Source of the DNA: an uncultured candidatus Porisulfidus sp.
GTDB taxonomy: Bacteria > Pseudomonadota > Gammaproteobacteria > Poriferisulfidales > Poriferisulfidaceae
NCBI GenBank assembly: GCA_965204575.1
Contig: OZ241993.1
Span: forward strand, 1 to 64,000
Length of the DNA stretch: 64,000 nucleotides
Direction: 5' to 3'
The notes beneath the pieces were generated by a model. The model searched no databases and was not told where the DNA came from. It saw only the letters and a program-made list of their open reading frames with translations. The position numbers were made by a program, and so were the translations under genes. Shown piece after piece: positions 4,447 to 45,219 of this stretch (its first letter is position 1; each line of letters starts with the position of its first letter).

Positions 4447-4455
4447 ATTTCTAAT
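4447..4455 (+). other. Putative recombination site ATTT-CT-AAT, porin copy 1
   Basis: tATTTCTAATTGC; porin homology stops here. Confidence 0.6.
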
Positions 4456-6364
4456 TGCTTTGGCCCTGGCGGCGGCCCCGTTCGCAGCCCAAGCCGAAAC
4501 ATGGAACATATACGGCTGGCAGAACTATTCCTGGGAGTTCGTGGACGAAAAAAACAGTGGTCGCAGTTACGATCGAATTTCCGGAAACGCGGCCAACATC
4601 GGCTTCAGTGCCAACGTGGACACCGGCATGAACGGCATCCACGTCACTCTCCAGTGCGAGTCATGGACGCTCCACAATCACTGGGATGGTCAGGGTGGCT
4701 GGTGCACCCGCAACTCCAAGATCGGCCTGTCTCATCCCCAGATGGGCGAGATCATGTTTGCCACCTGGCTGCTGCCCTACAACGAGGGCGTGGCGCAGTG
4801 GATCGACCCGTTCTACGACGCGGGCGGGGACTCGCATACCAGCATCATGGGTTCGGTCGGTGGCTCTACCTGGTATCATTCTCCTGGCGACTGGAACAAT
4901 CGTTCCGACCCGGACCGACATCCCGACTATGCTACCGGTGTAGACACCGGCTTCAACCGTCGTCAGCAGGAGATCATCCAGTATTGGTCGCCGAACTGGA
5001 ACGGCTTCGTGTTCCGCTTTGCCTGGACTGCAGGATATGAAGATGAACAGCCGTGGGGAAGGAATAATGCCAAACTGGACCCGGTGATTCGCTCGTCCAG
5101 CCTGGCATACACCAACGGCCCATTGTGGTTGGCGGTGGCCTGGCAGGATCACGAGGACTGGACCGCTAGTCGGCAAAAAATTCGCGGAAAAATGGACGGT
5201 TCGGACGCGGAGAGCCTGCGCGTGGCGGGCCGCTACATCATGGACATGGGTGATGGCATGAGCGTTCAGATCTCGGCGATGTGGGAGACCCTGGAGTACG
5301 AGTTCAACGGCGTGACCAGCGTCGATGAAGTAATGGGAGCTTTCTATCTTGGTTCTTTCACCTCCACCTACGACCTGTATCACGACGGGAGCAAGATTGT
5401 CGGGACTCCGGCGGTTCCGGGTACTCCGGCTATGCAGGCCGAGGTCGACGAGAACGACGTCAAGGCTCAGAAGACCCTTGATCTTGTGCGTAAGTTGTTC
5501 TACAACCCAGACGCTACCAGCGAGGCCGCTCCTTATACACTCAAAACCGGTGTCGAGGGAACCGCGTGGGGTGATGTCACTACCCTTCTAGCGGCGGCCG
5601 GCTTTGCTCCGGCGGACGATCCCTTGACGGCGGCGGACGAAAGCAAGGCCGCGGGCAGTTGTGCTGCCACTACTCCCTCGACGTGTACTGACCTTAATCT
5701 CAACGTCTTGGCGGATACTGATACCGCTACTGCCGGGCAGCAGAATGTGCTTAAGGCTGCGATCGAGGCTCTGAACAACGCCCGCGACACGGTTCCGGAT
5801 GACAATAACGATGCGACAACCGAGGACGCAGGCATACAGCCTCCGAACTTGGACGTGGCTGTCGGCCAAACTGGCGCTGGCACTGTAGCTCAGAGAAACG
5901 CCCAGGCCCAATACGACCTTTTGGTCGAGATGGCTACAGCGGCTGCTGAGAAAAAAGCCGGGATGACAGAGGCTGTACCGGCCAAACCCGCAGTCAGCGC
6001 AGCTGCTAACAGAGCTGCAATGACTATGGGCGAGAACGTCAAGATCGAGCGCGACGCCTGGATGGTGTCCGGCAAGATCAAGTTCGGCGGTCCCATCGAC
6101 TTCCGCTTCTCCTACATGGACGCGGACGATCTTGAGGTCTCCTGCGCATCCTGCTCGGGCGACTGGGACGAGACCGCGGCCGACGCCTTCAACGTGGGCA
6201 TCTTCTACACCATGCCGGCCGGCACGGAACTGCGCCTGACCTACTCCGAAGTCAACAACGACGACAACGGCGCTTACGGTCAGGGTGTCACCGGTACCGG
6301 GATCGCCTCACCGGGCAATGAAATCGAAATGTTCGCAGTGGGCATCGTGCACTGGTTCGACTAA
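4448..6364 (+). CDS. Porin copy 1, silent cassette (no ATG/RBS/n-region) with variable central insertion
   Basis: IYG N-terminal strand, YWSPNWNGF, C-terminal GIVHWFD; frame begins FLIALALAAAPFAAQA with no Met-Lys-Lys or SD. Confidence 0.85.
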   Translation, partial: FLIALALAAAPFAAQAETWNIYGWQNYSWEFVDEKNSGRSYDRISGNAANIGFSANVDTGMNGIHVTLQCESWTLHNHWDGQGGWCTRNSKIGLSHPQMGEIMFATWLLPYNEGVAQWIDPFYDAGGDSHTSIMGSVGGSTWYHSPGDWNNRSDPDRHPDYATGVDTGFNRRQQEIIQYWSPNWNGFVFRFAWTAGYEDEQPWGRNNAKLDPVIRSSSLAYTNGPLWLAVAWQDHEDWTASRQKIRGKMDGSDAESLRVAGRYIMDMGDGMSVQISAMWETLEYEFNGVTSVDEVMGAFYLGSFTSTYDLYHDGSKIVGTPAVPGTPAMQAEVDENDVKAQKTLDLVRKLFYNPDATSEAAPYTLKTGVEGTAWGDVTTLLAAAGFAPADDPLTAADESKAAGSCAATTPSTCTDLNLNVLADTDTATAGQQNVLKAAIEALNNARDTVPDDNNDATTEDAGIQPPNLDVAVGQTGAGTVAQRNAQAQYDLLVEMATAAAEKKAGMTEAVPAKPAVSAAANRAAMTMGENVKIERDAWMVSGKIKFGGPIDFRFSYMDADDLEVSCASCSGDWDETAADAFNVGIFYTMPAGTELRLTYSEVNNDDNGAYGQGVTGTGIASPGNEIEMFAVGIVHWFD

Positions 6365-6394
6365 GACAGTCCAACTGAGGCACACCAAACAAAG

Positions 6395-6422
6395 CAGGCG
6401 CCCTTCGGGGCGCCTGTTTTTC
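6395..6422 (+). terminator. Porin intrinsic terminator
   Basis: CAGGCGCCC-TTCG-GGGCGCCTG-TTTTTT. Confidence 0.85.
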
Positions 6423-6474
6423 TGGAAAATAGCGGAGATCAAAACTTGGTCAATACAGTGTGAGCCCTATGGAC

Positions 6475-7785
6475 TTACAGGTCGTGCAGAAACTGCGCAT
6501 GGTACAGGGGCCAGGTCTGTATCACGCCATCACCTTTCCCGCCAACGTTTCCGACCAGCTTGACCGCACAGCGGGGACGGTATTGTTCAAGATAGGTACG
6601 CAGGCTGCGCGCACGGGTGCGCGCCCCACTCTTGACTTCTACAGGGATTATGTCGCCACGGCGCCCATGGTGCAGAAATTCAATTTCTGCCCGGGTACCC
6701 TGCCAACCGTAAGTGTGACGCCCGACATGGGTATGAATCTCGTTCTGCACGAAGTTCTCAGCGACGAAACCCTTAAAGCAGGTATCCTGTCGATGTTGGG
6801 CTGCATAGTCCAGATTCAGCATGTGGCCGAGCAGGCCAACATCGGATAGGTATAGCCTGAAGGCATTCTGTTTGGATTGCGGCAGCAGGGGCATCTGGGG
6901 CCTGCCGGAAATCAGGTGGCATTTCTGAGCCAACTGGGCCGCCACCAGCCAGTCGATGGGACTCTGAAGATCTGCGTAACGGCGTTTTTTCTCAATGACG
7001 TCCCGGAACCGATAGCGTTGCACGGATCCGTCCCGGCTCGCAGCAAGTTGCCGCGGGATGTCGGTGAAGACGGCATCAATGTGTTGGGCGTGAATGCGCC
7101 CGGCAGACTTGCCGAAATCATTTCGGAATCCGTCGATCATACGTCGCTGAATCTCCCGGACGCTCCGAATTCGAGCCACGATCTTCCCAGAAGTGCCAAA
7201 CCAGTGGCTAACGGCCCCCGGCATGCCTCCTACGAAATAGTAGTCCAAAAGCAATTCCCACAGTTGATCGTGAACCACGGGGGAGCGGTCCCGCTCCCGG
7301 AATGCCGCAAGCAACCGGTCACGGCCGGACGCCATCACGAACTCCTCAAAACATAGTGGAGGCAGGGTCAGCCAGTGAACCTTGCCGACCGGGAAGGAAT
7401 CCAGCAGCCCAAGATTGGAACCAGATGCACAGACGAAAGCCCTGGGCAGTCTTTCGGCAAAGTATTTCAGCGAATCAACGGCAGGCTGGCATTCTCCGAC
7501 TTCATCGAAGAAGATAAGATTCTGCTCGGGGTCAATGTCCGAGCCGAGATGCGTGGCCAAGTTCTTCAGAACGGTTTCCGGGGCAAGTCCCTGTGCGAAC
7601 AGTCGGGCAAGTTTTGGTTGTTCGCGGAAATCCAGGTGAATGACCCTGCGAAACCACTTCGGTCCGAAGATCTTGGTGATGAGGAAGGTCTTGCCGACCT
7701 GACGTGCACCGTCCAGAAGCACAGGCTCGCGCTCTGGCAATTGCCGCCATTCCTCTAAGTTGCTCTCAATGAGGCGAGACAGCAT
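6475..7785 (-). CDS. AAA+ ATPase with DUF4143 and C-terminal nuclease-like motif
   Basis: Walker A GARQVGKT, Walker B IFFDEV, YYFVGGMP, EIEF...PVEVKSG. Confidence 0.88.
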   Translation of the reverse strand: MLSRLIESNLEEWRQLPEREPVLLDGARQVGKTFLITKIFGPKWFRRVIHLDFREQPKLARLFAQGLAPETVLKNLATHLGSDIDPEQNLIFFDEVGECQPAVDSLKYFAERLPRAFVCASGSNLGLLDSFPVGKVHWLTLPPLCFEEFVMASGRDRLLAAFRERDRSPVVHDQLWELLLDYYFVGGMPGAVSHWFGTSGKIVARIRSVREIQRRMIDGFRNDFGKSAGRIHAQHIDAVFTDIPRQLAASRDGSVQRYRFRDVIEKKRRYADLQSPIDWLVAAQLAQKCHLISGRPQMPLLPQSKQNAFRLYLSDVGLLGHMLNLDYAAQHRQDTCFKGFVAENFVQNEIHTHVGRHTYGWQGTRAEIEFLHHGRRGDIIPVEVKSGARTRARSLRTYLEQYRPRCAVKLVGNVGGKGDGVIQTWPLYHAQFLHDL

Positions 7786-7846
7786 GTTTCAGCACCTTTG
7801 CAAAGAACGCACGCGTAGTGTAGCAAAGAATCAATCCAAACACTTA

Positions 7847-7900
7847 CACTTTTATCACCATATAAATATTATTTTTTACATTTCTATCACCATAAAAGTG
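7847..7900 (-). promoter_or_regulatory. 54-bp AT-rich element upstream of DUF4143 ATPase
   Basis: CACTTTTAT...ATAAAAGTG terminal inverted repeat; 42/54 identical to the reverse complement of 11926-11979. Confidence 0.5.
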
Positions 7901-8091
7901 GACATTTAGAGTGCTTGATAGGCATGCTGTTCCCAACACGGTCTAACCGAATGGCAGACCAAACAAGCAGACACCCTTCGGGCATCTGTTTTTTTCGAGC
8001 CACATCAATAATTTGCACGATTGCAGCAGACTTCTGTTGACAGGATGCGCCACCACTCTCACAATGGACGCACGACCTGCATGGATTCGGA

Positions 8092-8907
8092 ATGACTCAG
8101 GCACGAACGCTGAAGCCGGAAGAGTATACGGTTGAAAAAGAACCCTACTACGAGCCAATCGGCTCAGAAATTGAGGTATTCGAGGCCGCTTGGAAAAACC
8201 AGCTGCCGGTCCTCCTCAAGGGGCCAACCGGTTGCGGGAAGACCCGCTTCATGGAATACATGGCGTGGCGGCTCAAGCGTCCGCTGATCACGGTATCCTG
8301 CCACGATGACCTGACTTCCTCGGATCTGGTCGGGCGCTACCTGATCTCAGGTGGCGAAACAGTCTGGGTAGACGGGCCGCTGGCCCGAGCCGTGCGCTCC
8401 GGCAGCATCTGCTACCTCGACGAAGTGGTGGAAGCACGCAAGGACACCACGGTCGTCATCCATCCTCTGTGCGACGATCGCCGGGTCCTCCCGATGGAAA
8501 AACATGGCGAGTTATTGGAGGCCCCGGACGAGTTCTGCATGGCGATTTCCTACAATCCGGGCTACCAGAGCGTCCTCAAGGATATCAAGCAGAGCACCCG
8601 GCAGCGGTTTGTTGCACTGGAGTTCGACTACCCCAAAGCGGAAATCGAACAGAAGATCGTAATTCGAGAAACTTCAGTAGATGCCGAGACCGCCAGACTT
8701 TTGGTCAAGTTTGCTGAAATGACCCGCAACCTCAAAGGCAACGGCCTGGACGAAGGTGCCAGCACACGGCTTCTGGTCCATGCAGGGAAACTCATTCAGT
8801 CGGGAGTGGACCCGGTGGCGGCCTGCACCAGCGCAGTCTCCCAAGCACTGACCGACGACCCGGAGATGCTCCAAGCCGTCAACGAGTTGGGATCGTCAGT
8901 GTTCTGA
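8092..8907 (+). CDS. cbbQ: CbbQ/NirQ/NorQ family MoxR AAA ATPase
   Basis: [48 protein letters not shown]. Confidence 0.85.
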
Positions 8908-11247: not shown

Positions 11248-11750
11248 CAGTGCAGGGCGGGAGAATTCAATTCGTCCGGATTATGAATCTCTTCTTCGGT
11301 CGCGTCCCGTACCTTCAGAATATTGAGGAAAAACTTCAGAGTTTTTCCCGCGAGGGGGTGATTGCCGTCCAAAGTCAGTTGGTCTCCGTCGATGGAAATC
11401 ACCCGGAATCGATGGATTTCCCCTACCTCGTTCTCGAAATCTGCTTCGGCACCCACATGGTGAAACTCCTCCGGGACATCGGACAGGCTCTGCGTCAACT
11501 GCAAGTCCGGGTCCAGGTCGCCAAAAGCGTCCTCGGGTTCAATCATGACTTCAACGGTATCGCCTGCCCGCCGGTTTTCCATCGCCGTTTCTATCCGTTG
11601 CCACAGGCCGCACTCGCTGCCGTGAACATAGGAGACAGGCAAATCGATTTGTTCCAGGACCTGCCCGCTTTCATCCATGATGCGGTAGGTGAATTCGACC
11701 AGTTTGTTTGGGCGAATGGGTTCGCCAGAAATGTAAGAGGTCATAGGCAA
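11247..11750 (-). CDS. slyD: FKBP-type peptidyl-prolyl isomerase, SlyD-like
   Basis: YVHG, PEDAFG, LDGNHPLAGKTLKF, VRDATEEE. Confidence 0.85.
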   Translation of the reverse strand: MPMTSYISGEPIRPNKLVEFTYRIMDESGQVLEQIDLPVSYVHGSECGLWQRIETAMENRRAGDTVEVMIEPEDAFGDLDPDLQLTQSLSDVPEEFHHVGAEADFENEVGEIHRFRVISIDGDQLTLDGNHPLAGKTLKFFLNILKVRDATEEEIHNPDELNSPALH

Positions 11751-11925
11751 TGCAACTAGGAGGGGGTTTTATAGATAGCAGACACCGCGAATATATCGCT
11801 TGAGTAATGAAAAAGTTTTTAGCATGTGGCCATTTTACCTAATTGAATCACTACCGTCCCGTTAAAGTATTTTCAATGCGAATCAAAATTAAAGAATGTG
11901 GCATTCTTTGGCACTCATCTACTCC

Positions 11926-11979
11926 CGCTTTTATGATGATCAAAATGTGAGAAATTGCATATATAGGGTCATAAAAGTG
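11926..11979 (+). promoter_or_regulatory. 54-bp AT-rich element upstream of the second DUF4143 ATPase
   Basis: Homologous to 7847-7900, same orientation relative to its gene. Confidence 0.5.
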
Positions 11980-12142
11980 TGGCTTTAAAATTAAGAACGG
12001 CAGCTTTTTCTTAAAAATTTCCATATTTTATGTGTGTTTAATATGGAAAAATACAATTTTTACCTACATAAAAGTTGCAGAAAAACAATCTTTATGTCAA
12101 TATGTCTAGGTGTTACACGATGATTTTCCTATCTTTATTTCC

Positions 12143-13456: not shown

Positions 13457-13489
13457 ATCACTCCCAACTCTTCAAGTATTCACCCCATG

Positions 13490-13546: not shown

Positions 13547-15469
13547 TTAGTCGAACCAGTGCACGATGCCCACTGCGAACATTTCAATTTCTAAACCTGC
13601 CTTTCCAAGCCCAGTGCCAGAAATGCCCTGACCGTAGGTTCCGTTGTCGTCGTTGTTGACTTCGGAGTAGGTCAGGCGCAGTTCCGTGCCGGCCGGCATG
13701 GTGTAGAAGATGCCCACGTTGAAGGCGTCGGCCGCAGTCTCGTCCCAGTCGCCCGAGCAGGATGCGCAGGAGACCTCGAGGTCGTCCGCGTCCATGTAGG
13801 AGAAGCGGAAGTCGATGGGACCGCCCATCTTGATCTTGCCGGACACCATCCAGGCGTCGCGCTCGATCTTGACGTTCTGGCCCATAGTCATTGCAGCTCT
13901 GTTAGCAGCTGCGCTGACTGCGGGTTTGGCCGCTACGACCGGTGTCTTCCCAGCTTTGGCCTCAGCAGCATCTGTAGCTGCAGCGACCAGCGCCAGGTAC
14001 GCGACGTGAGCGTCTCTCTCATCCTGAGAACCGCCTGCAGTACCGTCACCGACAGCCGCAGTCAGATCCGGCGGCTGTACGCCTGCGTCTTCAGTTGTCG
14101 CATCGTTGTTGTCATCATCAACCGTGTCACGGGCATTATTCAACGCCGTGATCGAAGCCATGAGAGCTGTGCCGGTAGCACCTTCAGTGAGCACACTTGT
14201 GCCCCCGTTGCCTGCAACCGGATTGCCTTCAGCGTCTACGCCTTCATCCGCTTCGGTAGCAGGGTTGTCAGAGGTCGGTGGGACATAGTTAGGCAAAGAT
14301 GTGAGACCAGTAGGACATCCATTGGCATTATCGCCAGTCACGGCAGAGTTGTCATCGTCCCAACAGTTGGGGAACACCGTTCTCAGCAGGTCGATGGTCT
14401 TCTGCGCCTTGACGTCGTCCTCGTCAACCGGGACCTGCTCGCCTCCGCTCGCCGGAACCGCCGGAGTCATGCCGATGACTTCACCCGCACTATCCAGCAA
14501 GCTGTAGGAGGAACCGAAGTTGGAGTAGCCGAACGCAGTCATGGCCGCATCGACGTTGGTCACGCCGTTGAACTCGTACTCCAGGGTCTCCCACATCGCC
14601 GAGATCTGAACGCTCATGCCGCCGCCCATGTCCATGATGTAGCGGCCGGCCACGCGCAGGCTCTCCGCGTCCGAGGTCTCCATCTGGCCGACGGAAGCCG
14701 CGGTCCAGTCCTCGTGGTCCTGCCAGGTCACCGCCGCCCACACTGGGCCGTTGGTGTAGGCCAGGCTTGAGGAGCGGATCACCGGATCAGTGTCCTTGCC
14801 TGAGTCTGCCCCATACGAGGTTCCACCGTCATCGCGGTTACCGACGGTCCACGCGAAGCGGAACACGAAGCCGTTCCAGTTCGGCGACCAGTACTGGACG
14901 ATGCCTTCCTGGCGACGATTGAAGCCCGTGTCGTCGCCTGCCCCCGCGTAGTTGAACTCATCCCCAGCATAACCGGTGCCCGGCCCCGAGGCGGATGCCT
15001 GGAAGTCGAAGTCGCCGGTGTTGTAGAAGATGGTGCGGGCGCCGACCGAGCCCATGATGCTGGTATGCGATTCCGAGCCCGCGTCGTAGAACGGGTCCAC
15101 CCACTGCGCCACGCCCTCGTTGTAGGGCAACAGCCAGGTGGCCAGCATGATCTCGCCCATCTGCGGATGGGACAGGCCGATCTTGGAGTTGCGGTTGCAC
15201 CAGCCGGTGCCGCCCGCGAAGTGGTTCACGTACATGAACTGCTCGCACTGGACGTTGACCGAGAGGTCGTTGAAGCCGGTGGGCACGCTTGCGCGGAAGC
15301 CGATGTGGGCGGCCGCTCCCTCTATGCGGTCGTAACTGCGGTCAAAACCCGCCGCCTGCTCATCCACGAATTGCCATGAATGGTTCTGCCAACCATAAAT
15401 GTTCCATGTTTCGGCTTGTGCGGCAAACGGTGCTACAATCAAAGCCAAAGCAATTAGAAATGGTTTTTT
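13547..15469 (-). CDS. Porin copy 2, silent cassette (TAA in place of start codon)
   Basis: Minus strand TAA AAA AAA CCA TTT CTA ATT GCT TTG; same conserved barrel segments; ends GIVHWFD. Confidence 0.85.
   Translation of the reverse strand, partial: KKPFLIALALIVAPFAAQAETWNIYGWQNHSWQFVDEQAAGFDRSYDRIEGAAAHIGFRASVPTGFNDLSVNVQCEQFMYVNHFAGGTGWCNRNSKIGLSHPQMGEIMLATWLLPYNEGVAQWVDPFYDAGSESHTSIMGSVGARTIFYNTGDFDFQASASGPGTGYAGDEFNYAGAGDDTGFNRRQEGIVQYWSPNWNGFVFRFAWTVGNRDDGGTSYGADSGKDTDPVIRSSSLAYTNGPVWAAVTWQDHEDWTAASVGQMETSDAESLRVAGRYIMDMGGGMSVQISAMWETLEYEFNGVTNVDAAMTAFGYSNFGSSYSLLDSAGEVIGMTPAVPASGGEQVPVDEDDVKAQKTIDLLRTVFPNCWDDDNSAVTGDNANGCPTGLTSLPNYVPPTSDNPATEADEGVDAEGNPVAGNGGTSVLTEGATGTALMASITALNNARDTVDDDNNDATTEDAGVQPPDLTAAVGDGTAGGSQDERDAHVAYLALVAAATDAAEAKAGKTPVVAAKPAVSAAANRAAMTMGQNVKIERDAWMVSGKIKMGGPIDFRFSYMDADDLEVSCASCSGDWDETAADAFNVGIFYTMPAGTELRLTYSEVNNDDNGTYGQGISGTGLGKAGLEIEMFAVGIVHWFD
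13623..14773. repeat. 1151-bp inverted repeat with 22097-23247
   Basis: By eye identical except one SNP (VDEDD vs VDDDD); alternate-frame ORF translations agree. Confidence 0.85.
15453..15461 (-). other. Putative recombination site, porin copy 2
   Basis: Minus strand CATTTCTAATTGC, 13/13 match to the predicted RNA guides. Confidence 0.65.
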
Positions 15470-15539
15470 TTACTTTCGACAGTCTTGAAAACCCTTCGAA
15501 AAGGCTCTGGCGGTCCCGTATACTGGACTTCCAGCCGGG

Positions 15540-16463
15540 ATGGTCTGCTGTCGCTCTGTGTCTGACCCCGCACACCTTATAAAGTTCAGTCGAGCACGAT
15601 TGAGCGGCCGGCAGATTTCGGAACTGTTGGGATTGTGCAAGGGTCTGATCGCCGACGGGCGAATCACCCAGAGTGAAGCGGAATCGCTTTACGCTTGGTT
15701 GATAGATCAGGAACAATCAGGGCTCCCTCTTGTCCAGACCTTGCAGGCGCGGGTCGGGCAAATGCTCGGAGACGGTGTTCTGGATGCCGATGAAAGTGCG
15801 GAGCTGATGCGGTTGATTCGCGCCCTGATCGACCACCGCGCGGAAGCGGGAATCCCTTTGAGCCGTCGCGGCATGCGGACCAACAGGTTGGACGATTACC
15901 AGGTTTCTGCGTTGCTGGGGCTATGCCGGGGTCTGATCGCCGACGGCAAAATCAATCAGAGCGAGGCGGATGCGCTCCACACTTGGCTGGCGGCCCACGA
16001 AGAGACGGCAGAGAATCCGGTGATGGCGACGTTTAAGGAGAAATTGAAGGATTTTTCCCACGAAGAGACTAAAAACAGCAGTAAAAACATAGAGCTGTTG
16101 AAGCTGCTCGATGGGCTGGTTGGAGGCAAGACGGAAGTCGGGGAATGCCTTCGTGCCACAACCTTATGGCTGGACGACCCACCGCCGGAAGTCCAGTTCG
16201 AAGATCGAAAGTTCTGCCTGACCGGCAAGTTTTCCCACGGCAGGCGCCGGCAGTGCGAGGATGAAATTCGAGCCCGCGGGGGAAGCTGCCAGCAATCCCC
16301 GGCAAAGACGACGGACTACTTGGTGATCGGATCCTACGCCGAAGGCACCTGGATTCAGTCCGCGTACGGGCGCAAGATCGAAAAGGCCGTGGCGCTGCGT
16401 GCCAGCGGTCTGCCCGTTCGGATCATCTCCGAGACACACTGGCTTGCAGGCCTGCGGCAATAA
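15540..16463 (+). CDS. BRCT-domain protein with duplicated TerB-like N-terminal helical domain
   Basis: Two LLGLCxGLIADGxIxQSEA repeats; C-terminal FCLTGKF...TDYLVIG...YGRKIEKA...IISETHW; start uncertain. Confidence 0.8.
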   Translation: MVCCRSVSDPAHLIKFSRARLSGRQISELLGLCKGLIADGRITQSEAESLYAWLIDQEQSGLPLVQTLQARVGQMLGDGVLDADESAELMRLIRALIDHRAEAGIPLSRRGMRTNRLDDYQVSALLGLCRGLIADGKINQSEADALHTWLAAHEETAENPVMATFKEKLKDFSHEETKNSSKNIELLKLLDGLVGGKTEVGECLRATTLWLDDPPPEVQFEDRKFCLTGKFSHGRRRQCEDEIRARGGSCQQSPAKTTDYLVIGSYAEGTWIQSAYGRKIEKAVALRASGLPVRIISETHWLAGLRQ

Positions 16464-18564: not shown

Positions 18565-18829
18565 TTTCTCTCTCCTGTCAATTAACGCCGAACACGCCGC
18601 ACTGCAAAGCGACCTGGTAAGCGGTTGAATGGCATGGTCTTTGTCCCGATTAATAAGGGACAATTCATGTTATCACAGGGCGGAAAAATTGAACAAGCGA
18701 CGGCGGCTGGTGACGGCGGCTGGCCAGGAAATAGTCAGCCAGACCTTGCAGATTTTGCTACATATTCCCAAGATATCTGCATATGATCGGGGAAGGAGCA
18801 ATAAGCTTAAGCTTTATTTGCACCTAGAA

Positions 18830-19050
18830 CCGGGCGCAGAAATCAGGATACCCCAACCCTTTGCAACAGCAGACCATCCAAGACTCGGGTTGGTTACCGA
18901 TGCGGTCTGTAGGAGTCGCGGAGTCAAGCCTTTGTCTAATTGCATGGATCACGATGCCAGACATGCCGCTTGGGCGTGAACGGCTTCGCACCGATGTAGA
19001 AATGCCAAGGGTTCTCCGACAGACTGGAGCATCCTGGTTTCTGCGGCCGG
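18830..19050 (-). ncRNA. Putative bridge RNA with guides matching the porin junction site
   Basis: 26-bp closing stem (19025-19050/18830-18855, 24 pairs including two G-U on the minus strand); guides CATTTCTA (19004-18997) and GCAATTAGA (18943-18935) flank an internal hairpin. Confidence 0.7.
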
Positions 19051-19066
19051 ACTTTCAATCAAGTAA

Positions 19067-20239
19067 TCAAGCCTCCTGCGTTACGCGGCTGATGCGGGAT
19101 TTCTCATGGCAAACGATGTCCCAGACAAATCCCGTCAATTCCCGTGCGATCGCGACGCAAACCACTTTCTGGTTCTTGCCTTCCGCGATTAGTTTCCGAT
19201 ACCGCCCGCACAGTCGTTTTTGCGCCTTCCACGCGATGGCCTGGGCATAGGCGGAAGCGCCTTCCGCCTTGCGGTTCATGTAGGCGGTCTGGCGGGCTGG
19301 AAACCGGTAGCACCAGGCCGACTCGACCAGCACCTGCCGGGCGTGGCGGTTCCCTGCCTGCGTGACGCCGCCGGTACGGCGGTGTGCTCCGGAACTGTAG
19401 ACACAAGGCACCAGCCCCAGATAACCCATCAACTGGTTGGGAGACCCGAAGCGGCTGATGTCGCCCAGTTCGGACAGCAGCGTGACCGCGGACAACTGGT
19501 CGAACCCGCGCAACGCCATCAGGCTGTTGGCCAGCGGCGCCCAGGACCAACCCCGCAGGACCTGGCTCAGTTTTTCATCCAGGTCGATCATGCGCGAGGA
19601 CGAAAGACGCACGGCCGCAATGTACTCGTCTCGGACTTCGGCCTGATAATCATATGAAAAATCAAGGCTTTCCAGCCATTCGAGATGTTTCTGCGTCCAG
19701 CGCTTCCGGTTGGTCGGCCAATGATGCCCGTGGCGCAGCACGAAGGCATTGAGCTGCTGGCGCAACTTCTGCTGTTGCGCCTTGAAGTCGGCGCGACAGC
19801 GGCACAGGTCGCGGACCGCTTCCTGTTCCTGGTCCGGCACCCAGACCTCGACCAACTCCCCGGCGCGCAGAAGCCGTGCCAGGCGCAACGCGTCCCTGCG
19901 GTCGGTCTTGATCTTTTCATTGCGCGGCGGGGCCACGACCTGGCAGTCCATGCCCATCGCGGTCAGGCTCTGGTACAGGGTGTACCCGCAAGGCCCGGCC
20001 TCGTAGCAAAGCAGGAAGGTTTCTTTTTCCGAATACAGCCGGTCGACGAGTTTGGCGACCGCTTTTTTCGTATTCGGTATGGTGCCCCAGGACTCGGGGG
20101 CTTCCCGACCCGCGTAGGCGACGGCGACGGCGATGCTGTCCTTGTGGACATCGAGTCCGACGTAGCCTGCGTAGGGTTTGGCGTGAGCCGAGTGGTCGGA
20201 AGGAGGGGTTCCGGCGGTTTCGGGGGGCTGTTGTTCCAT
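19067..20239 (-). CDS. IS110-family (Piv/DEDD) recombinase
   Basis: YVGLDVHK, CYEAGPCG, KTDRRDA, GYLGLVP..YSSG, AIAREL; SD GGAG before ATG 20239. Confidence 0.93.
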   Translation of the reverse strand: MEQQPPETAGTPPSDHSAHAKPYAGYVGLDVHKDSIAVAVAYAGREAPESWGTIPNTKKAVAKLVDRLYSEKETFLLCYEAGPCGYTLYQSLTAMGMDCQVVAPPRNEKIKTDRRDALRLARLLRAGELVEVWVPDQEQEAVRDLCRCRADFKAQQQKLRQQLNAFVLRHGHHWPTNRKRWTQKHLEWLESLDFSYDYQAEVRDEYIAAVRLSSSRMIDLDEKLSQVLRGWSWAPLANSLMALRGFDQLSAVTLLSELGDISRFGSPNQLMGYLGLVPCVYSSGAHRRTGGVTQAGNRHARQVLVESAWCYRFPARQTAYMNRKAEGASAYAQAIAWKAQKRLCGRYRKLIAEGKNQKVVCVAIARELTGFVWDIVCHEKSRISRVTQEA

Positions 20240-21137: not shown

Positions 21138-21160
21138 GAGTTCCGAGAGGTGAAAAAAAG

Positions 21161-21452
21161 CCATTTCTAATCGCCACGGCTTGGGTTTCGGTTCCGCTCG
21201 GGGTCCCAGTTGGGGTGGTTGTCATGAGCCGTTGTTTTTTAGAAACGGAAAAGGCTGGGCATCGGATTTCCCGTTGATTCTCTGTAGTTGTAAAAAAACA
21301 ACATTGGGAAGATTTGACAATTCTGCAAAGGCATAGACAATTCGCACTTGAATATGGCAGTTTTGCCACATTCCCGTGGGGAATGATCACCCTGCGGAAT
21401 TAGTAATATTTTTAGGAGTCCTAAAAAATGAAAAAACCATTTCTAATCGCCA
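21161..21452 (+). other. 276-bp porin promoter/RBS/ATG module bounded by 16-bp direct repeats
   Basis: CCATTTCTAATCGCCA at 21161-21176 and 21437-21452; CT cores at 21167 and 21443. Confidence 0.7.
21314..21418 (+). promoter_or_regulatory. Porin promoter, hairpinned 5' UTR and RBS
   Basis: TTGACA 21314-9, GACAAT 21336-41 (16-bp spacer), hairpins TGGCA/TGCCA and CATTCCC/GGGAATG, AGGAG 21414-8. Confidence 0.6.
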
Positions 21453-23331: not shown

Positions 23332-23472
23332 AGCCAAGGCACACCTTGCAAAGCAGGCGCCCTCCGGGGCGCCTGTTTTTTTGCAGATGAAGCAGTCATC
23401 CAACTGGCGAGGAGGAGGCTGACAGACAGTGTATGATGCCCGGTATCATTGAGAAAATGTTATGGATCGCCG
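23332..23472 (+). repeat. 141-bp direct repeat of 40025-40165 (terminator, promoter and first 11 nt of the AAA gene)
   Basis: One mismatch; ends ATGGATCGCCG. Confidence 0.85.
23354..23382 (+). terminator. Porin intrinsic terminator
   Basis: CAGGCGCCC-TCCG-GGGCGCCTG-T7. Confidence 0.85.
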
Positions 23473-36782: not shown

Positions 36783-36791
36783 ATTTCTAAT
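36783..36791 (+). other. Putative recombination site, porin copy 4
   Basis: tATTTCTAATCGC; homology to copy 3 starts here. Confidence 0.6.
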
Positions 36792-36847
36792 CGCCATGGC
36801 TTTGATTGTAGCACCGTTCGGTGCGCAAGCAGAGACGTGGAACATTT

Positions 36848-38195
36848 GGGTCTTCACGGAATTGTGTGGAACGGAGGTCTCGGATACAGGTCGAGTCCGC
36901 CCAAGTGAAAGTAGATGGCTTCACGGAAGCGCTCGCGGCTGCGGTAGCCGCAGGCTTGGCGTTTGATCCACTGCACTTTCGCGTTGATGGATTCCGACAG
37001 GGCATTGCTGATGCCCAGCACGGCGGCGTTCAGGATCTCTTCCACATGCTTCCAGATCGTCTCCGCCGCCTTGATCACCGGGGCCAGCCGCGAGCGTTTC
37101 GCCGCCTGATGCCAGGCTTCCCAGGCGTAGTAGGCCAGGGTCCGGTCGCGCAACGCCCAGATCTCCGCCGCCCGTTCCTTCAGGATCCAGGCCCGGGCCA
37201 CCTTCAGGTCCTCCTTGCGTAACGCTTCCAGACGCTGGCGCCGGGCCGGGCCCATCCGCTCCTCGGTCATCAGCCAGTCGAAACGGGTGCCCGCCAGGCG
37301 GGCATCGCCTTGCGCCAGCAACCTCTTGTGCTCCGCCCGGCGCACCTGGTCCACCGCCTGGTTGAGCAGGCTCACCACATGGAAGCGGTCGATGCAGATG
37401 TCGGCCTGGGTGTACTTCAGGGTCGCCGCGATGTAGGCCGGCGCCAGATCCATCGCGGCCGTCTCAACCTGCGCGCAGGCGGCGTCGCCCAACTCTCTGA
37501 AAAACGGCTCCACCGCTGCCTGATCCTTGCGGTCTCCCACATACAGCACCACCCCCTTGCGCCCGGACGCCGGCTTCTGATCGACCACGATCGAGACATA
37601 TTCATGCCGCTTCTGGAACGAGGTCTCGTCGATGCCGATCCGCTTCGGTGCCTGCGGCCCGCGTCGCGCCAATCCGCGCCGCACCGCCCGCGAGCGGATG
37701 CCGTCCGCCTGATGCCAGCTCAGCCCCCACTTCTGCGCCACCGCCCGCAGCGGCATCGCCAGCAGGTCCTCGATCACCTCCGTCTCGAAGCGCATCGTGA
37801 AACGACCGTGGGACTCCGCCCACGGCACCGCGATCTGCCGAATCCCGTGCTCCGGGCAGTTCGCCCGCGGCACCTCGGCCCGCAAGGTCGTGCGCCAACC
37901 CATCAAATCCAGGTCCCGCCACTCCCGCGCCTTCGTGTCGTGCCGCTTGCACAAGGTCCCGCATTCCGGACACGGCACCAGGCTCTTCGCCTGATAGGCC
38001 AACTCGATCGTGACGCGCCCCGGGCTGCGATCCTCGCCTCCTTCCCGACAGGACACCGAGACCACCTCCCACGGCGGATGCAGAAACATCAGCATCTCGC
38101 AAAACTTGTTCACTGCTTCCATCAGACCACACTCCAGACTAAAACGCGGAAGCATTATCCCTGACCCTCTATTCCACACAAAACCGTGATGCGCC
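36848..38195 (-). mobile_element. ISL3-family element, 1348 bp
   Basis: 24-bp imperfect terminal IRs (19/24) and 8-bp TSD GAACATTT at 36840-7 and 38196-203. Confidence 0.93.
36854..38122 (-). CDS. ISL3 transposase
   Basis: CPECG zinc finger, RIGIDETS, AMDL, DRFHV, SESINAKV...GYRS. Confidence 0.95.
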   Translation of the reverse strand: MEAVNKFCEMLMFLHPPWEVVSVSCREGGEDRSPGRVTIELAYQAKSLVPCPECGTLCKRHDTKAREWRDLDLMGWRTTLRAEVPRANCPEHGIRQIAVPWAESHGRFTMRFETEVIEDLLAMPLRAVAQKWGLSWHQADGIRSRAVRRGLARRGPQAPKRIGIDETSFQKRHEYVSIVVDQKPASGRKGVVLYVGDRKDQAAVEPFFRELGDAACAQVETAAMDLAPAYIAATLKYTQADICIDRFHVVSLLNQAVDQVRRAEHKRLLAQGDARLAGTRFDWLMTEERMGPARRQRLEALRKEDLKVARAWILKERAAEIWALRDRTLAYYAWEAWHQAAKRSRLAPVIKAAETIWKHVEEILNAAVLGISNALSESINAKVQWIKRQACGYRSRERFREAIYFHLGGLDLYPRPPFHTIP

Positions 38196-40046
38196 GAACA
38201 TTTATGGTTGGCAGAATCATTCTTGGGAGTTTGTGGATATCGACGGCGGACGCAGCTTCGACCGGATCCAGTCCAACGCGGGCAACATCGGATTCGCGGC
38301 GAGCGTGCCCACCGGCTTCAACGACCTCTCGGTCAACGTCCAGTGCGAGCAGTTCATGTACGTGAACCACTTCGCGGGCGGCACCGGCTGGTGCAACCGC
38401 AACTCCAAGATCGGCCTGTCTCACCCGCAGATGGGTGAGCTGATGCTGGCCACCTGGCTGCTCCCTTACAACGAGGGCGTGGCGCAGTGGGTCGACCCGT
38501 TCTATGACGCTGGCGCGGACTCGCATACCAGCATCATGGGATCGGTCGGTGCCAATACCATCTTCTACAACACTGGTGACTTCGACTTCCAGGCATCCGG
38601 CTCGAGTCCGGGCTCTGCTCAGACCGAGTTCAACTACCAGGTTGGCGGCTACGACACGGGCTTCAACCGTCGTCAGGAGAACATCATCCAGTACTGGTCT
38701 CCGAACTGGAACGGCTTCGTGTTCCGCTTCGCGTGGACCGCTGGCAACCGCGATGAGACCCCTCACATGGGAGGGGAAATCGACCCGGTAATCCGTTCCT
38801 CAAGCCTGGCCTACACCAACGGCCCAGTGTGGGCGGCGGTGACCTGGCAGGACCACGAGGACTGGACCGCGGCTTCCGTCGGCCAGATGGAGACCTCGGA
38901 CGCGGAGAGCCTGCGCGTGGCCGGCCGCTACATCATGGACATGGGCGGCGGCATGAGCGTTCAGGTCTCGGCGATGTGGGAGACCCTGGAGTACGAGTTC
39001 AACGGCGTGACCAACGTCGATGCGGCCATGACTGCGTTCGGGTACTCCAACTTCGGCACCTACGACCTGTATCACGACGAGAGCAAGATCGGAGCGACTG
39101 AGGCGAGTGGAAGGGCTCCTATGCCGATCGAGCCAACCGAAGACCAAGTCCAAGTCAAGGCTGAGATGACCCTTGAACTTTTCTGGGATCTGTTCACCGA
39201 TGGCGAAGATACCCCGGCGATAAACACTCTCGTCGCTGACTCCGACGGCGCTGCAATCACTGTCCCTGCCCTTCTGTCACCTGCGGCAGACAATCCTCTA
39301 ACGGCCGCGGATGAAAGCAAGACGACCGGTTGTAGTGCTGCCACGGCCGCTGTGGAAATGTGTAATGGCGGTCTCAACGTCTTGGCGGAGCCTGGCGGCA
39401 CCAACGCACTGAGGACTGCGGTCGAAGATCTGAACAATGCCCGTGATATGGATAGCACGACGGATGGTATTCAAGCGCCAGACCTGACAGTGGGTGCAGA
39501 TGCTGGTACCGTTGCCGAGGGTGATAGAGTCGGCGGCACTGTGGCTCAGAGAAACGCCCAGGTCCAGTACCGGCTGCTGGTCGACGCAGCCACAGCCGCT
39601 GCTAAGGCAAAGCTTGGAATGACGGAAGATACCCGTATGCCAGCACGCACTGAAGCAGAGAACAGAGCTGCGATGACTATGGGCCAGAACGTCAAGATCG
39701 AGCGCGACGCCTGGATGGTGTCGGGCAAGATCAAGTTCGGCGGCCCCATCGACTTCCGCTTCTCCTACATGGACGCGGACGACCTCGAGGTCTCCTGCGC
39801 ATCCTGCTCGGGCGACTGGGACGAAACCGCGGCCGACGCCTTCAACGTGGGCATCTTCTACACCATGCCGGCCGGCACGGAACTGCGCCTGACCTACTCC
39901 GAAGTCAACAACGACGACAACGGAACCTACGGTCAGGGCATCTCCGGTACCGGACTGGGTTCGCCTGGTGTGGAGATCGAGATGTTCGCAGTCGGTATCG
40001 TGCACTGGTTCGACTAATCCAGTCAGCCAAGGCACACCTTACAAAG

Positions 40047-40154: not shown

Positions 40155-41708
40155 ATGGATCGCCGCCAGCTTCCGATTGGAATTCAGGACTTCCGAGTCC
40201 TCCGCGAAGAGAGACATTACTATGTGGACAAGACTGCCTTCATCCGGCAGTTAGTGGAGGGGGGGCGCCATTATTTCCTGTCGCGGCCGCGGCGCTTCGG
40301 CAAGAGCCTGCTGATCGACACCCTGCAGGAACTGTTCGAAGGTAACGAGCCCCTGTTCCAGGGGCTGGCTATCCACGGGCACTGGGACTGGTCGGTCCGG
40401 CATCCGGTGCTGCGGCTGAGCTTTGGCGGGAAATACACCGAACCGGGAGACCTGGAAGCGAACATCCAGGACAAGCTGAACGGAATCGAGGAAGGTTTAG
40501 GGCTCGATCCGGAGCCTCGGGCCTTGCTCGGCCCGGAACGCCTGCAATCGCTTCTGCGCCGCCTGCACCGGACCACCGGTCGACAAGTGGTGGTGCTGAT
40601 CGACGAATACGACAAGCCAATCCTGGACGTGTTGAAGAATCCAGAACTGGCGGAAGCAAACCGAGACTACCTGCGCGGCTTCTACGGGATCATCAAGGAC
40701 AGCGCGAAACATGTGCGCTTCGTGTTCGTGACTGGGGTGAGCATGTTCTCGAAGGCGAGCCTGTTCTCGGGGCTCAACAACCTGAAGGATATCAGCCTGG
40801 ATCCGCGCTATGCCGCGATCTGCGGCTATACCGATCGCGACATCGATACCGTGTTCGCCCCGGAGTTGCCGGGGCTCGACCGGGAGGAGATCCGGGCCTG
40901 GTACAACGGCTACGGCTGGCGCGGCGAGGAGAAGCTCTACAACCCGTATGGCGTTTTGCTGCTGTTCGACAGCCGGGAGTTCCAACCACACTGGTTCGAG
41001 ACCGCGACCCCGACTTTTCTGTACCAACTGATGCGGGAACGGAGCGTGAATCCTCTGGAGCTGGAGAGCCGGCGGGTTGATGTGGCGCGCCTGTCGAAGC
41101 TGGATGTGAGCGACATGGACCTGCATGCGCTGATGTTTCAGACGGGCTACCTGACAATCGCGGGGGAGGAGCGCATCGGGACGGAGACCTTCTACCGGCT
41201 GGAATACCCGAACCTAGAGGTTCGGCAGAGTTTCAGTAAGGGTCTGATGGTGGATCTGGGCCGGGAAAGCGAAGAGGTCACGATGCAGGCACATGCCCTG
41301 CTGGGGCTGCTGGAGTCGAACGACTTCGAGGGATTTGCCCGACACCTCCAGTCCTATCTGGCTGGGGTTCCGCACCCGTGGTGGGAGGGGGCGGGAGAAT
41401 TAGGCCGGTACGAGTCGCATTATGCGGCGATGCTGTACATGACGCTGCGTGCGGTGGGGGCGGAGGTTCATGCGGAAGAATCTTCCAGCCACGGTCGTTC
41501 GGACCTAGTGATCCGGCAGGGAGGCCAGGTTTTCGTGCTGGAACTCAAGGTCGCGGAGGGAGAGGACGAGGCGGAAAGTACGCTGGATGCGGCACTGGAC
41601 CAGATTCAGGATCGGGGCTATGCGGAGAAGTACCGATCTGAGGGCGAGCCGGTGTACCTTCTGGGGCTGGTGTTCGGGAAGGAGGAGCGAACGTTACTTG
41701 GAATGTGA
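40155..41708 (+). CDS. AAA-ATPase-like protein with C-terminal PD-(D/E)xK nuclease
   Basis: LPIGIQDF, YVDKT, RPRRFGKSL, LIDEYDKP, WYNGY, GRSDL...VLELK. Confidence 0.92.
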   Translation: MDRRQLPIGIQDFRVLREERHYYVDKTAFIRQLVEGGRHYFLSRPRRFGKSLLIDTLQELFEGNEPLFQGLAIHGHWDWSVRHPVLRLSFGGKYTEPGDLEANIQDKLNGIEEGLGLDPEPRALLGPERLQSLLRRLHRTTGRQVVVLIDEYDKPILDVLKNPELAEANRDYLRGFYGIIKDSAKHVRFVFVTGVSMFSKASLFSGLNNLKDISLDPRYAAICGYTDRDIDTVFAPELPGLDREEIRAWYNGYGWRGEEKLYNPYGVLLLFDSREFQPHWFETATPTFLYQLMRERSVNPLELESRRVDVARLSKLDVSDMDLHALMFQTGYLTIAGEERIGTETFYRLEYPNLEVRQSFSKGLMVDLGRESEEVTMQAHALLGLLESNDFEGFARHLQSYLAGVPHPWWEGAGELGRYESHYAAMLYMTLRAVGAEVHAEESSSHGRSDLVIRQGGQVFVLELKVAEGEDEAESTLDAALDQIQDRGYAEKYRSEGEPVYLLGLVFGKEERTLLGM

Positions 41709-42605: not shown

Positions 42606-42663
42606 GACAGTCTAGCTAAGGCACACCACACAAAGCAGGCGCCCTTCGGGGCGTCTGTCTTTT
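42606..42663 (+). terminator. Orphan porin 3' UTR and terminator with no porin upstream
   Basis: GACAGTCTAGCTAAGGCACACC..CAAAGCAGGCGCCCTTCGGGGCG matches the porin 3' ends. Confidence 0.8.
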
Positions 42664-42992: not shown

Positions 42993-42996
42993 CGAC

Positions 42997-43425
42997 GTGG
43001 CACTCCCTGAACCAGTACCGGGACTTGTCATTCGCTACGATTACCTTTGGCGACATGAAGCCGAACAAGGACGAATAGAAGCATCCAAATATCGACCCAG
43101 TGTGGTTGTTCTATCAATAACCGGCAAAGAAACTGACAAGAAAGTTGTGTGGGTTGCGCCAATTACTCGTCGCCAGCCTCATGATGCATCAGCCGCAATC
43201 GAGATACCAAATCAAGTAAAACAACGCCTTGGTCTGGACGCAGAGAAGTCGTGGATCATCATTTCCGAGGTAAATAGGTTCATATGGCCGGGACCGGATA
43301 TCCGTCCGGTCAGCCAAGGGCAGTGGGCGTACGGTGTGTTACCACATCGTCTATTTCAAGCAATCCTTGATAGGCTGAAAATTTATCGCGATCAACGCCA
43401 GACAAAGCAGGTTCAACGTGATTAA
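42997..43425 (+). CDS. PemK/MazF-like toxin
   Basis: PGLVIRYDYLW, KYRPSVVV, VAPIT, LGLD..SWII.SEVNRF.WPGPD. Confidence 0.75.
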   Translation: MALPEPVPGLVIRYDYLWRHEAEQGRIEASKYRPSVVVLSITGKETDKKVVWVAPITRRQPHDASAAIEIPNQVKQRLGLDAEKSWIIISEVNRFIWPGPDIRPVSQGQWAYGVLPHRLFQAILDRLKIYRDQRQTKQVQRD

Positions 43426-43456
43426 TCCCCACTTGCTGAATATTGACCAATTAAAA

Positions 43457-43465
43457 ATTTCTAAT
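43457..43465 (+). other. Putative recombination site, porin copy 5
   Basis: aATTTCTAATatt; in-frame TAA just upstream. Confidence 0.55.
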
Positions 43466-45219
43466 ATTTTTTGCCTTGGCGGCGATTCCATTCGCAGCCC
43501 AGGCCGAAACATGGAATATTTATGGTTGGCAGAATCATTCTTGGGAGTTTGTGGATATCGACGGCGGACGCAGCTTCGACCGGATCCAGTTCAACGCGGG
43601 CAACATCGGATTCGCGGCAAGCGTGCCCACCGGCATGAACGACATCTCGGTTAACGTGCAGTGCGAACAGTTTACGTACTACAACCAACTCGGTGGAAAA
43701 ACCGGCTGGTGTAACCGTAACTCCAAGATCGGCCTGTCTCACCCGCAGATGGGTGAGGTCATGCTGGCTACCTGGCTGCTCCCTTACAACGAGGGCGTGG
43801 CACAGTGGGTCGACCCGTTCTATGACGCTGGCGCGGACTCGCATACCAGCATCATGGGTTCGGTCGGTGCCAATACCATCTTCTACAACACCGGCGAGTT
43901 CGGCGCGTTCGACTACACTGTGGCCGGAGCCTACGACACCGGCTTCAATCGTCGCCAGGACAACATCATCCAGTACTGGTCGCCGAACTGGAACGGCTTC
44001 GTGTTCCGCTTCGCGTGGACCGCCGGCAACCGGGATGAGACAAAAGCCCGGAACGACCACGAGATCGATCCGGTGATTCGTTCCTCAAGCCTGGCCTACA
44101 CCAACGGCCCGCTGTGGGCGGCGGTGACCTGGCAGGACCACGAGGACTGGACCGCGGCTTCCGTCGGCCAGATGGAGGCCTCGGACGCGGAGAGCCTGCG
44201 CGTGGCCGGCCGCTACATCATGGATATGGGCGACGGCATGAGCGTTCAGATCTCGGCGATGTGGGAGACCCTGGAGTACGAGTTCAACAACGTGAGCAAT
44301 GTCGATGCGGCCATGGCTGCGTTCGGCTACAGCAACTTCGGCACCTACGACTTGTTCCACAACGGGAACAAGATTGTAGGGACTGATGCGGTTGCGGCAA
44401 AAAAAGCGGTCTACACGACCTATGACGGCCAGACCGACGAAGAGAAGGAAAATGCGGTCAAGGCACAGAAGACCCTTGAACTTGTGCGTAGTTTGTTCTA
44501 CGACGAAGCCACTGACGGCGGCGGACGAAAGTGCGACCGGTTGCGCTGCCGCTACTCCCCCGACGTGTACTGATCTCAGTCTCAACGTCTTGGCGGATAC
44601 TAATACCGCTACTGACGGGCAGCAGACTGTACTTAAGGCTGCGATCGATGCTCTGAACAATGCCCGCGACACTGATGCCTCCACGGATGGCGTACAGGCG
44701 CCGGACTTGTCTGACGCGGATAGTGGTACTACGGCCCAGAGAGACGCCGAGACGCAATACCAGCTACTGGTCGAGGCGGCTACGAAAGCAGCGATGGAGG
44801 CATTCGAGCCTGAACTGGTCACGGCTGCCGTAGATGCAGTCGCGGCCAAGACGGCGGCAGAAAACAGAGCTGCAATGACTATGAACCAAAACGTCAAGAT
44901 CGAGCGTGACGCCTGGATGGTGTCCGGCAAGATCAAGATGGGCGGTCCCATCGACTTCCGCTTCTCCTACATGGACGCGGATGACCTTGAGGTCTCCTGC
45001 GGCTCTTGCTCGTGTGACTGGGACGAAACCGCGGCCGACGCATGGAACGTGGGCATCTTCTACACCATGCCGGCCGGCACGGAACTGCGTCTGACCTACT
45101 CCGAAGTCTCCAACGACAAAAACGGAACCTACGGCCAGGGCATCTCCGGTACCGGACTGGGTACTGCTGGTGCGGAGATCGAGATGTTCGCAGTCGGTAT
45201 CGTGCACTGGTTCGACTAA
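43458..45219 (+). pseudogene. Porin copy 5, silent cassette with frameshift in the variable region
   Basis: Frame switch at ~44509-44513 (YDEAT to PLTAADES); both halves homologous to the other copies. Confidence 0.85.

Follow-up and report, generated by a model that had tools for sequence, protein, structure and literature searches.

Five porin copies and one start: a probable multi-cassette switch run by a domesticated bridge-RNA-guided recombinase in an uncultured candidatus Porisulfidus sp.

The first 64,000 nucleotides (nt) of contig OZ241993.1 (forward strand; GenBank assembly GCA_965204575.1), from an uncultured candidatus Porisulfidus sp., a sulfur bacterium associated with sponges, raise the question of how a bacterium might use five porin copies of which a single one has a regular translation start. 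We refer to this whole stretch as the window; it belongs to a genome of 1.8 Mb held in a single contig (G000). An earlier note, made from the letters of the window alone, had proposed one expression site and four silent cassettes, with a crossover at a CT dinucleotide of a shared junction site. Our analysis led us to conclude, with a probability of about 0.7, that a domesticated recombinase, guided by a bridge RNA (seekRNA), switches among several porin cassettes at this locus. The proposal of the note is supported by the recombinase gene itself, by a loop of its predicted RNA whose two strands overlap on CT, and by a promoter-bearing module that is found in both orientations among related genomes.

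The five porin paralogues lie within 41 kb of the window, and in all of them the homology border falls at the 9-base sequence ATTTCTAAT. The window contains this sequence six times, where 0.10 occurrences would be expected, and none of 100 shuffles got to six. Five of the occurrences are porin 5' ends, at 4447 (+), 15453-15461 (-), 21439 (+), 36783 (+) and 43457 (+), and the sixth, at 21163, is a 45-nt leftover of a porin start; this remnant, GTGAAAAAAAGCC-ATTTCTAAT-CGCCACGGCTT at 21150..21195 (+), is out of frame and was found in G000 only. When copy 3 was used in a tblastn search across the 1.8-Mb genome, no porin copy beyond the five was detected. The site corresponds to codons 4-7 of the porin signal peptide, and the reading frame through it is constant, giving Phe-Leu-Ile in every copy. 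On the 5' side of ATTTCT, similarity ends at once in copies 1, 4 and 5; copy 2 retains AAAAAACC and has TAA in place of ATG, and copy 5 has an in-frame TAA upstream of the site too. The upstream flanks of the five sites are unrelated to one another, and no repeat of these 1-kb flanks was found elsewhere in the genome, which ruled them out as ends of an insertion sequence (IS). The 9-mer is also present at 67466 (+), 349268 (-) and 350634 (-) of G000, outside the porin locus, and these three sites may be chance matches or possible off-targets.

Only copy 3 has a Shine-Dalgarno sequence (SD), TAGGAGTCCT, followed by five A and ATG AAA AAA CC before the site. Its promoter and leader (21230..21427, +) are conserved and unique in the genome, with TTGACA-16-GACAAT at 21314-21341, and the promoter flank ends in ...ATGAAAAAACC at the junction. 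The gene runs from 21428 to 23323 (+) and encodes 631 residues, with the junction site at 21439-21447, and it is followed by a terminator-like stem and T-run at 23352..23382 (+), a sequence that is identical downstream of every copy. About 57 nt directly after the stop codon are common to all copies, and an orphan terminator region of this kind lies at 42606..42663 (+). Silent cassette 1 (4448..6364, +) is an intact, start-less frame of 638 codons from Phe-Leu-Ile to GIVHWFD; its junction site (4447..4455, +) has a unique upstream flank with no SD or ATG. Cassette 2 (13547..15460, -) likewise keeps an intact start-less frame of 637 codons to GIVHWFD, is 93% identical to copy 3, and is preceded by a junction site plus flank, GTAAAAAAAACC, at 15453..15473 (-), with TAA at the ATG position. 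Cassette 4 begins with a 5' piece (36783..36847, +) that is 100% identical to 21439-21503, is then interrupted by an ISL3-family insertion of 1348 bp (36848..38195, -) with an 8-bp duplication and two further identical copies in the genome, and resumes at 38196..40017 (+). Cassette 5 (43457..45219, +), with its junction site at 43457, contains a frameshift near 44.5 kb. What the earlier note had read from the sequence of these copies was confirmed: their number and both orientations, a terminator for each, an SD with ATG-Lys-Lys at 21428 alone, the loss of homology at the site or, in copy 2, slightly upstream of it, the TAA codons of copies 2 and 5, and the constant frame. Its count of four silent cassettes stands for copies 1 and 2 as open, start-less frames, while copy 4 is split and copy 5 is frameshifted.

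Copy 3 itself gave no Pfam match; homologues of 442-446 residues from two relatives, 74-78% identical to it in alignment, match Porin_4 (PF13609) with E-values of 2.7e-22 and 1.8e-20. An AlphaFold model of copy 3 built with 34 homologues was rich in strands and of low confidence (predicted local distance difference test score, pLDDT, 57.7), and a Foldseek search with this low-confidence model returned Omp32, chitoporin, PorB and OmpF (E about 1e-10, template-modelling score to the target ≤0.69). The window paralogues are predicted to be Gram-negative general porins of the Porin_4 type, whose fold is a 16-strand barrel. In the window copies, the N- and C-terminal parts of the barrel are conserved and are separated by a hypervariable insert of some 200 residues.

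The gene for an IS110-family DEDD recombinase of 390 residues (19067..20239, -) is located between copy 2 and the expression site. Both of its Pfam matches, DEDD_Tnp_IS110 (PF01548, RuvC-like; E 2.6e-17) and Transposase_20 (PF02371; E 4e-18), exceed the curated cut-offs. A phmmer search of the PDB with the single sequence gave no match, and a profile made from 13 orthologues reached IS621 (8wt6) with an E-value of 4.8e-4. Residues D30, E80, D113, D116 and S283-G284 align to IS621, at positions which we take to be catalytic there, and are invariant in all 13 orthologues; each of the 13 is also intact, at about 390 residues. Orthologues were found in 12 of the 15 other genomes of the genus that were searched, syntenic and 66-92% identical, and not in G006 or two fragmented assemblies. 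Only one copy of the gene is present in G000 and in 10 of these 12 relatives; the other two, G007 and G015, have more distant paralogues in addition (55% and 52-60% identity, respectively). No IS termini and no subterminal repeat were found around the recombinase module, and across the loci examined no porin site was interrupted by an insertion. Single copy, syntenic and without ends, the window recombinase is not a mobile IS. In nine of the 13 loci, the distance from the gene to a porin 5' end is at most about 1.5 kb. At the G015 locus, recombinase and RNA are at 725 kb, 90-370 kb from both porin clusters, and an active system at this locus would need to work in trans.

Directly 3' of the recombinase gene, we predicted a guide RNA of the bridge/seek type (18824..19054, -). 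All 13 orthologues share a conserved stretch of about 230 nt behind the stop codon, and the RNAalifold consensus consists of a long closing stem and two arms, with 96.1% of cells paired. Both sides change in 28 of its 65 pairs, compared with 10.7 ± 2.1 in shuffles (0/500 as high) and 3-9 when the partners were slid. A scan of 15000-22000 against Rfam at E ≤ 1 gave a sub-threshold snoZ6 only. The internal loop of arm 1 reproduces the porin site, CCATTTCTAAT, on both strands: its 5' strand, CAUUUCUA (18997..19004, -), equals the top strand (left arm, CT, A), and its 3' strand, AUUAGA (18935..18940, -), equals the bottom strand, the complement of TCTAAT. As DNA, the loop reads GGCAUUUCUA on the 5' strand and CAAUUAGACA on the 3' strand, and the columns ATTTCTA and TTAGA are invariant across the orthologue RNAs. 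The two guide segments overlap on TCTA, including the CT core, and in 20,000 dinucleotide shuffles of the RNA CATTTCTA and ATTAGA were never found together. According to the available text of PMC11208160, a bridge RNA base-pairs to the bottom strand through its left guide and to the top strand through its right guide, each of which includes the core dinucleotide; the available text of PMC11187229 places the RNA of IS1111-type elements 3' of the gene, with the two segments in reversed order. As predicted here, the arm-1 loop has the layout described for bridge RNAs.

Other places for a guide were considered. The 5' leader of the recombinase gene was ruled out, as it has CATTTC in the window and CGTTCC in relatives. 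In arm 2, the stems covary and the loops differ among species. The arm-2 hairpin loop UAACCAAC was rejected as a guide for left arms of the TACC type: it is also conserved in a paralogue and in mobile relatives whose RNAs have other targets, and it is structural. A match between the arm-2 5' loop UCCUA and the SD region GGAGTCCTA in G000 was taken as chance, since this loop differs in other species. Silent sites mostly have TACC, AACC or TAT(T/A/C) as the 4-5 nt ahead of ATTTCT, the expression site has AAACC, and the guide does not pair with left-arm letters of the TACC/TATT type. In G007, the RNA 3' of the 55%-identical paralogue (locus L049, contig C39) has the same scaffold with the loop letters CGUUUCUUC and AAGAGAG, and is presumably aimed at another site.

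Mobile relatives of the recombinase indicated which of the two loops had been retained. When GTDB genomes were scanned with the recombinase profile, 80 loci were retrieved, and their RNAs were compared by regular expressions and alignment. Many of these loci are multi-copy elements with 43-61% identity and the same RNA scaffold. Of 40 distinct RNAs of the family, 33 have CUA and UAGA in the arm-1 loop, and 27 different pairs of guides are represented among them. For 17 mobile elements with a placed right terminus, the reverse complement of the 5' guide matched the 6 nt outside the element at 79 of 102 positions, compared with 35.4 on permutation, and none of 5000 permutations was as good. The left side, available for six elements only, gave 26 matches of 36, a value reached or exceeded by 183 of 5000 permutations. 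The prediction of the bases outside the right end by the 5' guide indicates that arm 1 is the target-binding loop (TBL). In mobile members, arm 2 contains AUAUCAG, which is the right terminus of the element; this segment (ATATCAG in DNA) is absent from all 13 RNAs of this genus. With the arm-1 loop kept and both AUAUCAG and the IS ends lost, the target loop has been retained and is aimed at the start of a host porin, and the ancestral recognition of a donor has been lost.

A layout with a single promoter and several start-less cassettes is found elsewhere in the genus too. The porin is present in 35 of 41 related genomes (G000 included) and is multi-copy within the genus. In each of the six complete relatives from which porin clusters were taken (G001, G008, G009, G010, G013 and G015), one copy, or two in G013, has SD-ATG-A(A/G)A-AAA-CC before ATTTCTAAT, and up to eight more copies lose similarity at this site. 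Start-less copies are open to the conserved C-terminus in 21 of 22 cases in these relatives and in 23 of 26 when G000 is added. Over all loci fetched, there were 40 distinct 60-nt site contexts, nine of the promoter type and 31 silent. In the ten copies of G013, identity is 91-100% over the 120 nt that follow the site, whereas the sequences on its left side are unrelated (20-38%), save for a few duplicated flanks; there, identical flanks occur with different body types and vice versa, and all four flank/body combinations are present. The copy-2-type flank is orthologous in G001, G003, G005, G008 and G011, the ATG being missing in all, and its in-frame stop (TAA/TAG) was read directly in G000, G001 and G008. 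G006, of the same genus and assembled as one contig of 98% completeness, has neither recombinase nor guide RNA; its four porins each have their own ATG and a different sequence at the site position. In other genera of the order there is one porin, with its own ATG and without the 9-mer site. Within the genus, recombinase, RNA and site occur together in 12 of the 15 genomes searched.

Rearrangement was found between species, and possible signs of it within a population. The inverted sites at 15453-15461 (-) and 21439-21447 (+) enclose the promoter-bearing module, and inverted sites surround it likewise in G001, G003, G008, G009, G010 and G013. In G000, G001 and G008, the order is argG, mlaA, (porin), CbbQ-like gene, amidase, silent porin, a module of BRCT-like gene, recombinase and promoter, and then the expressed porin, ispB and ppk. 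The module has the opposite orientation in G003 and G009, where the porin on the amidase side is the one behind the promoter and the porin on the ispB side adjoins the copy-2-type flank; the end points of this inversion fall in the two porin 5' ends. Among species, the promoter thus points toward ispB-ppk in three genomes versus toward amidase-CbbQ in two. As population data we used Logan contigs from runs X1, X2 and X3, which represent two samples of one organism; contigs of this kind drop rare variants, and junction frequencies cannot be read from them. These contigs break at 15444 and 15473, limits that comprise 12 nt of flank 2 and 18 nt common to copies 1 and 2, and the 30-mers at both breaks are all unique in the assembled genome. 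Another break, at 21468, is expected from copy 4. There are loose ends of 12 nt, identical to the start of body 1 in X1 and X3 and to the end of flank 1 in X3. Breaks and loose ends together fit the signature that flank-2/body-1 and flank-1/body-2 junctions would leave in a k=31 graph, and it is these two junctions that copies 1 and 2 would yield if the interval 4456-15452 were inverted.

In the switch that we propose, one module bears the promoter, the SD, ATG-AAA-AAA-CC, the recombinase gene and the predicted guide RNA, which would be made and bound by the recombinase. The complex would read ATTTCTAAT at two sites, both of them possibly through one and the same loop (homotypic synapsis), and the guide match on both strands would set the DEDD/Ser recombinase on the CT core for strand exchange. 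Between inverted sites, exchange would flip the interval, joining the promoter and first codons to another porin body and leaving the previously expressed body without a start. A flip of 15462-21438, for example, would place the promoter and first four codons ahead of body 2. The sites of copies 1, 4 and 5 would then stand inverted, so that inversions with them would become possible, and successive inversions could reach cassettes of either orientation. All products would be in frame, Met-Lys-Lys-Pro followed by Phe-Leu-Ile. Only the promoter-linked copy would be expressed, and the benefit would lie in surface variation. For excision by IS621, recognition by one loop, a donor-binding loop (DBL) at both partners (DBL-DBL), suffices according to the available text of a preprint (10.64898/2026.08.31.748434), which makes a homotypic mode plausible.

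Several observations weigh against this proposal. Two of the four cassettes are broken in G000, and G000 and G001 are collinear over the whole locus, with no rearrangement, from which it follows that switching is too slow to randomise assemblies. The inversion of the module between species could be a homologous crossover within the 93%-identical inverted porin bodies, and the contig breaks could stem from a second strain and not from active switching. Among the loose ends listed for X1-X3, none joins the promoter flank to another body, and a metagenome scan with the expression-site flank gave two contigs, both with the usual arrangement. With regard to the RNA, no second guide loop for a partner site was found in it, arm 2 being variable, and the left arms of silent sites match the guide over 4-5 nt plus the core only. 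We found no experimental precedent for a homotypic target loop, as the preprint, in its available text, concerns DBL-DBL and not TBL-TBL recognition.

The clearest competitor to guided inversion is homologous recombination or gene conversion among the paralogues, with the IS110-like gene and its RNA as bystanders and the 5' border as the mere end of homology. Switching by these routes is known from Campylobacter fetus sap and Neisseria pilE/pilS. It would account for the 100% identity of copies 3 and 4 over the first 65 and 105 nt and the 93% identity of copies 2 and 3, for porin bodies that are mosaic between G000 and G001, and for the module inversion between species, which a crossover inside inverted bodies could explain. 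It would not be expected to keep the border at one 9-bp sequence throughout 40 distinct contexts from several species, the adjoining RNA loop matches exactly that 9-mer on both strands, and the contig breaks put the exchange within the 18 nt common to copies 1 and 2 rather than in longer identical stretches. We hence regard it as unlikely. That the start-less copies are dead relics of IS-driven rearrangement, with no switching at all, would agree with the several ISs of the region (the ISL3 element in copy 4 and an IS110-family IS at 24145-25603) and with the damage to copies 4 and 5; however, the great majority of start-less copies in G000 and the six relatives are full-length, the ATG-less copy-2-type flank has been kept in G000 and five relatives, and the flanks are not IS ends, which makes this very improbable.

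Two further explanations dispense with either the silence of the copies or the host's ownership of the enzyme. If the porins were an ordinary paralogue family, each copy would be expressed from a downstream TTG or other start, and the listing of open reading frames does give a TTG a few codons past the site (4460, 15448 and 43476). The resulting signal peptides, however, would have 12 residues and no charged N-region, there is no SD or promoter-like conserved sequence ahead of them, and in-frame stops stand directly upstream in copies 2 and 5; we give this explanation hardly any weight. The recombinase and its RNA might instead still be a selfish IS that happens to prefer the porin 5' end as its target, since the same RNA scaffold accompanies mobile members of the family elsewhere. 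A single-copy, syntenic gene with 66-92% identity over 13 genomes, without termini or donor guide, and with no porin site interrupted by an insertion, does not look like such an element, and this reading too is highly improbable. Returning to the guided switch, we also propose, more tentatively, a wider picture that is a real possibility: a host-owned bridge recombinase that has shed its donor loop and reads two copies of one chromosomal site with a single guide loop would be an RNA-programmed invertase or 'shufflon' for surface antigens, and new cassette positions would come from excised circles re-entering half-matching sites, hence the left arms of the TACC/TATT type.

Other genes of the region were also noted. 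A protein of 307 residues with a weak C-terminal BRCT match (15540..16463, +) is encoded near the recombinase and guide RNA. Its gene neighbours the guide RNA in G000, G001, G003, G008, G009, G013 and a further three contigs, an arrangement that G010 and G015 do not have, and the protein may be an accessory factor. The invertible module also contains, between the leader of the recombinase gene and the promoter of the porin, a pair of Phd/YefM antitoxin and PIN-domain toxin genes (20485-21137, +); the pair is present in G008 too and missing from G001, G009 and G013. Just downstream of copy 3, a distinct IS110-family element with a 342-residue transposase (24145-25603, +) recurs with 99.9% identity at 713401-714859 of the genome, and is a true mobile IS. 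A lipoprotein gene with a beta-barrel domain of the transferrin-binding-protein-B type (26960-27937, +) adjoins copy 3, in a synteny kept in G001. Two AAA_14/DUF4143 ATPase genes that are 59% identical (6475-7785, -, and 12110-13456, +) bracket the CbbQ-amidase block between cassettes 1 and 2, and a predicted AAA-ATPase with a PD-(D/E)XK domain (40155-41708, +) follows cassette 4.

Piv of Moraxella lacunata and Moraxella bovis inverts DNA to change pilin, swapping two pilin C-terminal segments. Like the window recombinase, it is a host-kept relative of the IS110 family, and the Moraxella analogy drawn in the earlier note therefore pointed to the right enzyme family; an IS110/DEDD recombinase with an intact catalytic set does adjoin the expression site. 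Whereas Piv swaps two segments, here a promoter and four codons would move among up to 10 bodies, and whereas Piv, in the available text of PMC11187229, has about 320 residues and belongs to the IS492/IS621 branch, the window protein has 390 residues and a 3' RNA. In full-text searches on bridge RNAs, seekRNAs and Piv, no report of a guide RNA for Piv was found. Mycoplasma pulmonis vsa/HvsR, Campylobacter fetus sap and the R64 shufflon are multiple-inversion systems that use tyrosine recombinases or RecA. They share with the window one expression site, silent cassettes in both orientations and inversion at a short site within or close to the 5' coding end, and differ from it in their enzymes, as the candidate here would be guided by RNA. 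The bridge-RNA (seekRNA) recombinases of IS110/IS1111 elements, such as IS621 and ISEc11 (Durrant 2024, PMC11208160; Siddiquee 2024, PMC11187229, as far as their available text goes), belong to the same DEDD plus Ser family, and IS1111-type elements (PMC11187229) carry their structured RNA in non-coding sequence on the 3' side of the gene, an arrangement that the window shares. In contrast to IS621 and ISEc11, the window recombinase is single copy and syntenic, lacks element ends and has lost the donor-matching segment; its target is a multi-copy host coding sequence, and it would presumably invert the DNA between chromosomal sites rather than insert an element. TldR, derived from TnpB, is likewise, in the accessible part of its description, an exapted RNA-guided transposon protein through which the host controls a surface structure; TldR is described there as a nuclease-dead repressor, whereas the window recombinase keeps its catalytic residues and would rearrange DNA.

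Collectively, the system is a combination of known kinds: an enzyme of the Piv family, a layout like that of vsa and sap, and a guide of the bridge/seekRNA type. In its available text, Durrant et al. (PMC11208160) mention only 'invertase homologues of IS110s'. Literature searches on bridge RNAs, seekRNAs, Piv and domesticated IS110 recombinases, and under the genus name, yielded no report of a host-kept bridge recombinase serving phase or antigenic variation or the regulation of the host's own genes. To our knowledge, bridge recombinases have so far been known only as selfish IS110/IS1111 elements and engineered editors. If our conclusion is correct, this would be a natural case of a host using a bridge recombinase and guide RNA on its own genes, it would explain how a Piv-like invertase finds its sites, and it would provide a natural one-loop guide architecture that could be tested for inversion. 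It would also mean that a sponge symbiont with a reduced genome invests in variation of its major porin, which would point to pressure from phages or the host on this porin, and we infer that the purpose of the switch may be phage or host evasion.

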